Source of the DNA: a virus
Lineage: Duplodnaviria > Heunggongvirae > Uroviricota > Caudoviricetes
Strand: one strand, 5' to 3'
IMG/VR virus record: IMGVR_UViG_2778261510_000005
DNA length: 64,000 bases
The notes under the pieces were generated by a model. The model worked only from the letters and a program-made list of their open reading frames with translations, had not been told where the DNA came from and did no database searches. A program made the translations under genes and the position numbers. Shown one piece after another: positions 20,685 through 21,722 of this stretch; within the stretch, counting starts at the first letter, position 1, and each line of letters starts with the position of its first letter.

Positions 20685-21722
20685 TTAACCTATTGCTACT
20701 GGTTTTAACAAACCAGCATCAAGTAGCTTGCGAGTTAACCACTGCTGGCCTTTACCCGTTAATTGGGGCGTCAGCCGTATCTGATAGCCATTTTCATCAT
20801 CCAGCACCACTTCTTTCACCGTGAAATACCCGGCGTTAATGTACTGCTGGCGCGGTACGTTTTTGCGCGCACCAAAAGCCATGAGAATGCCGTTCTGGCG
20901 CAACCATGAGAAAAGGGCGTTTTGCTTAAGTCCAACGACCTTTGCAAAGTTACCGATCAGGATTCCATTAGCCACTGATACCCGGTCGGCAAAATCGACT
21001 TTAGGTGCTGCGGCCACCAGCTGTTGTTCCAGATGCATTTTCTGTTCTGCCAACTCGGCAGCCAGGCGTAGGGCTTCTGGTAATGTTTGGGGGATCGATG
21101 GGGTAGGGGAGTTTGCCTGCTGCAATTCTTCCAGTTTGTCGATCAGCGAACGGCGGACAGCTTTTGATTCGCGCGCGGCGACTCGCAGGGCTTGTTTGTA
21201 GGTCATGGTTATGACAAGCATTGATGTTTTGTTCATTTTTTCCACTACACTTTTTGTGTAGTGCTCACCATCAAGCTCATCGAGTATTTTTTCGATGAAT
21301 TTGTTGTTCCGAACCTCTGGTTCCCCACATAACTTACGCGCTTCATTGACCATCTTTAACAGTGTCTGGCTGTCGATTGTGTCTCCAGTGTTGGAGATAA
21401 CATTCACAGTTGGTGATGGCGTAGCTAAAGCAACAGGTGCTGGTTTTTCAACATTCAAATTATTACCGGTCATTCTGCGCGCCTCCTTTCTCATTTCTGC
21501 TGCCACCGTTGCGTAACGTAGACGTCCTTGTTCAATCAAATAATCCCTGATCTCGGCTATCAGTAGCCTGTTGATCACAGCCTTATCTGTTCGGGTATAA
21601 AAACGCCTGGTTATCATGAAATAGTTGGCAATTGCGCCGGGGATCTCCCGTGTCGGCATACAGGCAGTATGCAGGGCGATCGCTTCGGCTATGTCATTAC
21701 GGGTGACGAGAGGTTTTTTCAT
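20685..21722 (-). CDS. ant: antirepressor
   Basis: 345 aa, ATGA overlap with icd stop; shared N-terminal domain with the second copy at 63357; C-terminal KilAC-type domain. Confidence 0.75.
   Translation of the reverse strand: MKKPLVTRNDIAEAIALHTACMPTREIPGAIANYFMITRRFYTRTDKAVINRLLIAEIRDYLIEQGRLRYATVAAEMRKEARRMTGNNLNVEKPAPVALATPSPTVNVISNTGDTIDSQTLLKMVNEARKLCGEPEVRNNKFIEKILDELDGEHYTKSVVEKMNKTSMLVITMTYKQALRVAARESKAVRRSLIDKLEELQQANSPTPSIPQTLPEALRLAAELAEQKMHLEQQLVAAAPKVDFADRVSVANGILIGNFAKVVGLKQNALFSWLRQNGILMAFGARKNVPRQQYINAGYFTVKEVVLDDENGYQIRLTPQLTGKGQQWLTRKLLDAGLLKPVAIG

Follow-up and report, generated by a model that had tools for sequence, protein, structure and literature searches.

Do the two antirepressor genes of a single phage-plasmid couple a common N-terminal module to unrelated effectors, or do they differ elsewhere? 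The question is raised by a stretch of 64,000 nucleotides from a member of Caudoviricetes (IMG/VR record IMGVR_UViG_2778261510_000005), hereafter the window, which holds one complete antirepressor gene, ant1 (copy 1), and a second one, ant' (copy 2), that is cut by the end of the sequence. An initial annotation of the window had read both products as a shared N-terminal receiving module joined to different C-terminal effector domains. Our results point to another arrangement, and we consider it likely that the window carries two immI-type modules encoding three-part Ant proteins, that the central domain has been swapped between these proteins, and that the two circuits are independently locked.

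Completion of the second antirepressor gene

The paralogy proposed in the initial annotation was borne out. Copy 1 (20685..21722, minus strand) was delineated by its open reading frame (ORF), BLASTP and Pfam as a protein of 345 residues with an ATG start, and copy 2 (63357..64000, plus strand) runs for 214 codons to the window end with no stop. Their N termini align by BLASTP with 61/117 identities (E-value 3e-38), the identity over residues 1-83 being 51/83 (61%), and the N-terminal motifs quoted in that annotation occur in both. Copy 1 ends in a Pfam ANT/KilAC domain (PF03374; residues 232-334, 1.2e-30, 106.4 bits), whose recurrence in KilA, also proposed earlier, was confirmed: kilA (19721..20521, minus strand) encodes KilA-N and ANT/KilAC domains by Pfam (112.2 bits for the latter), constitutes the third KilAC protein gene of the window, and its product is 65% identical to copy 1 over the C-terminal 136 residues (E-value 8e-66). 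The visible part of copy 2 enters an ORF6N domain (PF10543; residues 116-200, 63702-63956, plus strand; 4.3e-20, 72.2 bits against a cutoff of 27.8), for which copy 1 gave no Pfam match even at an E-value of 10, and beyond about residue 113 of this visible part BLASTP detected nothing similar to copy 1.

Megablast searches of phages, plasmids and complete Escherichia coli genomes with 62700-64000, 61900-64000 and 44000-64000 found no record identical to the copy 2 region, the best matches being of 99.5% over 1.3 kb and of 98% over 18.7 kb. Plasmid pHYEC7-mcr1 (NZ_KX518745) is 99.5% identical to window 62700-64000, and across the 644 visible bases of ant' it shows two synonymous differences, so that all 214 residues are identical. 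Its counterpart of ant' has 1113 nucleotides and encodes 370 residues (annotated 'phage antirepressor Ant'), with Pfam ORF6N at 116-200 and ANT/KilAC at 258-359 (E-value 2e-32, 112.2 bits). Aligned over the full length, copy 1 and this protein are 55% identical overall, with 61% in the N segment, 17% in the linker, 25% in the central domain (a value at the level of noise) and 91% over the last 136 aligned residues, which comprise KilAC. Plasmid pE2865-1 (98.5% identical) carries the same 370-residue gene, with the SIR2-family and mat genes of the window as its neighbours, and KilAC was present in 58/58 complete ORF6N-type Ants examined in our IMG/VR census of icd loci (19 with a P1-type C4 and 39 of a divergent class). 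RefSeq labels the copy 2 protein either 'phage antirepressor Ant' or 'KilAC domain-containing protein'.

The gene ant' is hence expected to have about 370 codons, of which about 156, encoding a coiled linker and KilAC, would lie past position 64000; about 471 bases to the stop codon are predicted, encoding ...DSYFRQKEQQPVAIPQTLPEALRLAAELAEQK... and then KilAC. Because relatives with the identical 214 residues continue into KilAC, the different C-terminal effector domains of the initial annotation are an effect of the window end, and the C-terminal domains proved homologous in the full-length alignment. Domain annotation and completion through relatives did uphold that a domain has been exchanged, ORF6N being unlike anything seen in copy 1; the exchanged domain, however, is central and not C-terminal. 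To judge from these alignments, the swapped part is the central domain only, both ends being common to both Ants, and the earlier interpretation arises largely from the window edge.

Domain organization and divergence of the Ant proteins

Both Ants are three-part proteins, formed by an 83-residue helical N segment, an exchangeable central domain (copy 1 has a P1-type, Rha-like one, copy 2 has ORF6N), and a common C-terminal part composed of a coiled linker and KilAC. In copy 1 (minus strand), the N segment lies at 21474-21722, the P1-type central domain (M1) at about 21108-21383, and the conserved C-terminal block, which contains KilAC, at 20688-21107 (Pfam ANT, 20721-21029); the N segment of copy 2 corresponds to 63357-63605 (plus strand).

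In the annotated P1 record, ant2 is nested in frame within ant1 and starts 249 nucleotides into it, at codon 84. Met84 and the sequence AAGGAGG eight bases upstream are kept in both copies of the window at this annotated position: in copy 1 an ant2-type frame runs through 20685..21473 (ATG 21471-21473, minus strand), and in copy 2 the internal ATG is found at 63606-63608 with its Shine-Dalgarno sequence at 63591-63597 (plus strand). As the internal start is conserved in both, the shared N segment is exactly the Ant1-only part that is absent from Ant2. Initiation at Met84 would also yield a short (Ant2) form, and the N segment would be present only in the long (Ant1) form. The receiving module of the initial annotation was not supported as such, since the segment is an Ant1-only extension upstream of the P1 internal ant2 start.

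A search with the N segment returned 56 short fragments and small ORFs and zero full-length proteins, the source-named matches being almost all from Escherichia, and PHROG 63 ('anti-repressor Ant') was the only PHROG profile covering it. On this distribution, the N segment is a narrowly distributed, lineage-restricted add-on. Two ORFs of 133-138 residues (P0023 and P0027) contain an N-segment-like stretch alone, which shares 56% identity with that of Ant; P0027, located on a 5.29-Mb contig, represents a group of 112 member sequences.

The central domain of copy 1, searched against 1.84 billion representative proteins, had 319 relatives, mostly of 220-260 residues with the domain in N-terminal position, and among 68 sampled homologues KilAC was found in 31 and a Phage_pRha match in 1. 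Since these relatives are mostly short, with the domain N-terminal and 31/68 carrying KilAC, the short form of Ant would resemble a common two-domain antirepressor. The two central domains separately match phrog_1726 at the same profile positions (1.6e-23 and 6.4e-21); an hhalign comparison of the ORF6N sequence with a profile of 67 sequences was not significant (E-value 0.1), with a pairwise identity of 25% between the domains. One variant of 467 residues (P0058) holds the N segment, the P1-type domain, ORF6N and KilAC in tandem, and two such loci were found, followed by kilA-repL; the presence of both domains in this protein shows that they act as independent cassettes.

AlphaFold2 placed four helices in the N segment of both copies, with moderate confidence in copy 1 and low confidence in copy 2. 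The copy 1 model was built on a 10-row alignment (mean predicted local distance difference test score, pLDDT, of 66; predicted template modelling score of 0.30), the visible part of copy 2 was modelled from the single sequence, and from both models the secondary structure of the N segment alone was used. Foldseek comparison of the copy 1 model with PDB gave nothing below an E-value of 0.019, hence no significant fold match, and neither Ant had a match in a PDB sequence search or in NCBIfam. The full-length search with copy 1 listed 120 proteins, none of them less than 97% identical, which made them unusable for a deep alignment.

Divergence between the copies was assessed through the rates of nonsynonymous (dN) and synonymous (dS) substitution. 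The dN/dS ratio between the ant copies was 0.12 in the N segment and 0.10 in KilAC, so that both segments are under purifying selection and maintained as protein, and the ratio was 0.08 for icd against icd'. The idea that the N segment is conserved for RNA-level reasons only was rejected on the same ratio, dS being saturated there. Between the two ant types, dS reached 2.4 in the N segment and 0.76 in KilAC (window 20688-21722 against locus L001 6658-7770), and this difference suggests a more recent swap of the 3' end than of the 5' end between cassettes.

Two immI-type modules in the window

Around copy 1, gene order and sequence are those of immI in phages P1 and P7, as compared with their annotated records, and the copy 1 protein is 93% identical to P1 Ant1 and 90% to P7 Ant1 (an identical protein is recorded for at least 1000 contigs). 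Because the immI order, the C4 RNA and kilA-repL match the P1 and P7 records and Ant resembles their Ant1, the window is, by gene content and order, a P1/P7-type phage-plasmid with two immI-type antirepressor modules.

Module 1, encoded on the minus strand, is the canonical operon, with C1 operator, c4, icd, ant1/ant2, kilA and repL. A C1-operator-like site at 22256..22272, equivalent to P1 Oc4/Op51, has two mismatches to ATTGCTCTAATAAATTT and can be aligned with the operator annotated in P1 and P7. The upstream C4 targets, aligned to the annotated P1 sites, are a1 (TTGACAG, 22150-22156) and b1 (GATTGTG, 22136-22142), and an Rfam match to c4-a1b1 covers 22142-22195. The C4 antisense RNA itself (21988..22073; Rfam RF01695, 68.4 bits, E-value 3.4e-11) has a P7-type loop b' (CACAATC, 22024-22030) and a P1-type loop a' (CTGTCAA, 22011-22017); the gathering score of this family is 45, and the C4 of both modules lies above it. 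The downstream targets a2 (21981-21987) and b2 (21952-21958) are exact complements of a' and b', respectively, and b2 abuts the Shine-Dalgarno sequence of icd, an ORF of 73 residues (21719..21940) that aligns with P1 and P7 icd. At ATGA (21719-21722), the icd stop overlaps the ant start, and translational coupling is predicted. A further C1 operator upstream of kilA-repL (20591..20607; P1 Op53 equivalent) shows one mismatch to the consensus and lies at the P1 position. As in the immI of P1 and P7, module 1 continues into kilA-repL, the lytic replicon, where repL (18846..19691) has the size and position of its P1 and P7 counterparts and marks the canonical immI-kilA-repL arrangement. Unlike P1 or P7 immI, module 1 mixes a P1-type a site with a P7-type b site, and our sample contained 12 modules of this hybrid specificity.

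Module 2, on the plus strand, is an accessory cassette between mat and cre, with its own C1 operator, promoter, a1/b1, c4, a2/b2, icd' and ant'. Its left neighbour is mat, encoding the maturation control protein (61903..62544, minus strand; annotation in relatives), and relatives without the cassette lose their match at window position ~62742, which places the left edge. The C1 operator (62805..62821) is ATTGCTCTAATAAATTT with zero mismatches, and the whole window contains seven C1 operator matches as compared with 0.03 expected by chance. Further consensus matches were located at 1927-1954, 5460-5476 and 47882-47898, the first being an overlapping inverted pair. The -35 and -10 elements of module 2 align with the sigma-70 promoter P1c4 of P1. 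They are accompanied by an Rfam match to c4-a1b1 (62885-62937), by a1 (TTAGCAG, 62923-62929) and b1 (GTACATG, 62937-62943), and by a C4 antisense RNA (63006..63091; RF01695, 71.7 bits, E-value 5.3e-12) whose loop b' (CATGTAC, 63049-63055) is of neither P1 nor P7 type and whose loop a' (CTGCTAA, 63062-63068) is of P7 type. Again, a2 (63092-63098) and b2 (63121-63127) are exact complements of the module's own a' and b', b2 abuts the Shine-Dalgarno sequence of icd' (63139..63360; 73 residues, 82% identical to icd), and the icd' stop overlaps the ant' start at ATGA (63357-63360), with coupling predicted. By this set of elements, the window contains a second immI-type cassette that is complete, has its own antisense-RNA lock and ends with copy 2. 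Module 2 is not continued by kilA-repL, ant' being followed in relatives by a small ORF and by cre on the other strand; it is therefore an immI-type cassette and not the immI locus.

A gene for a SIR2_2-domain protein of 434 residues (60542-61846, minus strand; Pfam 2.1e-23) directly adjoins mat and the accessory cassette; this neighbour is also found in pE2865-1 and may be a defence gene in a variable region.

C4 specificity and predicted independence of the circuits

The recognition sequences differ at both sites between the modules (a/b: TTGACAG/GATTGTG in module 1 and TTAGCAG/GTACATG in module 2), and a1, a' and a2, as well as b1, b' and b2, agree exactly inside each module. Whole-molecule cofolding of C4 with its target returned zero interaction energy, since loop-loop pairing is not captured, and duplexes of the loop segments were used instead. 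Cognate pairs reached -18.7 and -19.0 kcal/mol, and the cross pairs of module 1 with module 2 reached -4.3 and -5.5 kcal/mol. P1 and P7 are the classical example of heteroimmunity, and it is in c4 that they differ (PMC12197685, PMC6906374); their cross-pair duplexes, at -6.8 and -7.5 kcal/mol, are stronger than those between our two modules. Given that loops and own targets co-vary, and that the cross duplexes are weaker than those of heteroimmune P1 and P7, we predict that the two modules are independently locked at translation while sharing C1 control of transcription.

Census of related modules

The icd-containing loci of related contigs (IMG/VR and others; loci L005-L166) included 118 modules with a P1-type C4, in which two a' variants and six b' variants form 11 combinations. 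Upstream site, loop and downstream site co-vary in 117/118 modules. In the sole exception (L037), b' ATTCGT matches b1, but b2 is P1-type (GTTAGT); this locus looks recombinant, and its C4 would be expected to be unable to pair with its own icd ribosome-binding site. Ten contigs held two to four modules, with zero repeats of an (a', b') pair.

Module position and central domain were recorded together: the modules continuing into kilA-repL had the P1-type domain in 79 cases and both domains in 2, and those adjoining mat and/or cre had ORF6N in 16 and the P1-type domain in 5. Window 61900-64000 is present at 80% or more in 40/5426 complete E. coli genomes, the copy 2 cassette occurs also in many E. 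albertii plasmids, and a scan of species-representative genomes with Icd yielded 3 loci. A 97-kb contig (IMGVR_UViG_2703718869_000013) carries up to four icd-ant cassettes, and on the UMNF18 plasmid (L089) two accessory cassettes are adjacent and divergently oriented.

Proposed mechanism and alternative explanations

By analogy with P1 and P7, both module promoters would be shut by C1, and each C4 would pair at a2/b2 over the icd ribosome-binding site, blocking translation of its own icd and, via coupling, of ant. More tentatively, Ant' may be made in two forms and inactivate a C1-type repressor, and the swapped central domain would be the candidate specificity determinant. Two roles can be suggested for the accessory cassette with similar caution: its C4 could widen lysogen immunity by silencing in trans the ant of incoming relatives of the same specificity, or the cassette could provide a second route to derepression.

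Some considerations weigh against this interpretation. The binding of Ant' to C1, its two forms and a domain conferring specificity are predictions, and so is the independence of the C4 circuits, for which complementarity is the evidence. One contig has two modules that share b' and differ in a' alone, so a double mismatch is not universal, and the lack of repeated pairs argues only weakly for the reading, as it would arise by chance with a probability of about 0.08 over 15 pairs. The C terminus of copy 2 lies outside the window, its KilAC end being deduced from relatives at 98.5-99.5% identity, and the structure models, at pLDDT 66 for copy 1 and 44 for copy 2, were of limited use.

The alternative that survives best, to which we give a modest probability, is that the selected product is the accessory C4 RNA and not Ant': acting in trans, it would keep ant silent in heteroimmune relatives that enter the cell, and icd' and ant' would be kept for no other reason than that c4 is processed from the transcript they share and is autoregulated there. 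The repertoire agrees with it, as there are at least 11 specificity classes and up to four modules per plasmid, never with the same pair, and c4 specificity defines the heteroimmunity of P1 and P7 immI (PMC12197685, PMC6906374). Purifying selection along the length of ant' argues, however, that the protein itself is used.

A second possibility, that module 2 is a decaying immI duplicate or a recombination scar with no function of its own, is very unlikely. It would fit the missing kilA-repL continuation and the fact that some related loci are truncated or interrupted by insertion sequences; yet the icd' and ant' frames are intact with dN/dS of about 0.1, the C1 operator has no mismatch, both target sets have changed together with the C4 loops, and the cassette recurs in the 40 E. 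coli genomes and the many E. albertii plasmids mentioned above. A pseudogene remnant was rejected.

The remaining two explanations have hardly any probability in our estimation. That both modules stem from two P1-like elements joined by misassembly or cointegration, rather than being within-genome paralogues, could appeal to the ready recombination of P1-like elements, as reported in one study (PMC6906374), and to the IMG/VR contig with four modules, but the cassette is also found at this mat-cre position on closed circular plasmids with the usual size of P1 (92-101 kb), and the identified P1-like genes between the two modules of the window are in single copy. An assembly chimera was rejected. 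The original proposal of a shared receiving module with unrelated C-terminal effectors (KilAC and another) aimed at different repressors drew on the entry of visible copy 2 into ORF6N without significant similarity to copy 1, and falls with the truncation of that copy, the 91% identical KilAC of its relatives and the presence of KilAC in every complete ORF6N-type Ant.

Relation to known systems and significance

Two immI-type modules with three-part Ants and separate C4 locks remain close to the immI of P1 and P7. Module 1 is that operon, in identical order through kilA and repL, and module 2 has all of its regulatory elements (C1 operator, promoter, a1/b1, C4, a2/b2, ATGA and Met84), differing in its location between mat and cre, the lack of kilA-repL, a b loop unlike that of either phage and an ORF6N-type Ant. 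In P1, Ant1/Ant2 act as a complex against C1 and are repressed by c4 (PMC8546580). Extra icd-ant1/2 homologues in variable regions of P1-like plasmids, such as RD-1 of pSvP1 and the ant insert of pTZ20_1P and RCS47, appear in the corresponding part of the work of Venturini et al. (PMC6906374), where they are listed but their C4 RNA, target sites and domain structure receive no analysis. In the literature that we covered, which was incomplete, no paper analysing the C4 specificities of accessory cassettes was found.

Alternative domains upstream of a constant KilAC are not peculiar to these Ants. KilAC regulators with interchangeable upstream domains are reportedly also covered by a domain-shuffling survey by Iyer, Koonin and Aravind from 2002. 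In the Listeria regulator AriS and its relatives, a constant C-terminal KilAC is likewise combined with alternative upstream domains, namely AntA/B, Bro-N or pRha (PMC9043618). Here, the upstream domains are KilA-N, P1-type or ORF6N, and the Ant2-length product shares the two-domain layout; P1-type Ants differ in having a nested second start and, in addition, the lineage-restricted 83-residue N extension. For AriS, the host SOS response is the target of KilAC and the phage that of the variable domain, the exact roles of antirepressor domains being called unclear in that study (PMC9043618); this division of roles belongs to AriS and is not assigned for Ant.

A third class of icd-ant loci (L114-L166) was encountered in the census, with Rfam isrK and a more divergent C4 upstream (e.g., L133 3230-3419 and L142 3215-3425) and a C1-operator-like site ahead; its icd-like ORF (N terminus MATIPTP...) is coupled to an ant of N-ORF6N-KilAC organization. 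With isrK and C4 upstream of such genes, these P1-like cassettes resemble the IsrK-orf45-anrP locus of Gifsy-1 (PMC12197685), and their RNA is more divergent from P1 C4. No isrK-type module was found in the window.

A sensor module with alternative effectors would have been new, and what is present instead are ordinary P1-type antirepressors with a swapped middle domain; KilAC with varying partner domains is well known, and extra icd-ant cassettes have already been annotated and noted in the literature. The more interesting by-product is the pair of complete immI-type circuits, both under C1, as putatively orthogonal natural antisense locks. Since c4 specificity defines the heteroimmunity of P1 and P7, variation in c4 probably influences coexistence, exclusion and mutual induction among P1-like phage-plasmids. 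A bolder extension, which we hold as doubtful, is that P1-like phage-plasmids collect c4-icd-ant cassettes as a mutually orthogonal immunity repertoire, in which each resident C4 would silence the antirepressor of relatives of its own type on their entry, and Ant variants, through the swappable central domain, could target different repressors or the host; its basis is the set of at least 11 a'/b' combinations and the isrK-associated class, a single replicon carrying as many as four cassettes. If so, the network of compatibility and exclusion among co-circulating phage-plasmids, including carriers of mcr-1 and other resistance genes, would be determined by the cassettes that each one carries.

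Further features of the window

Apart from both modules, a TnpB gene of the IS200/IS605 family (OrfB_IS605 plus a Cas12f1-like TNB domain) is inserted in the backbone at 48969-50177 (plus strand), and the two ORFs adjoining it (50217-52938, minus strand) had no Pfam match. Two adjacent transfer RNA genes were identified at 1119-1269 (minus strand), with Rfam scores of 72 and 77 bits.

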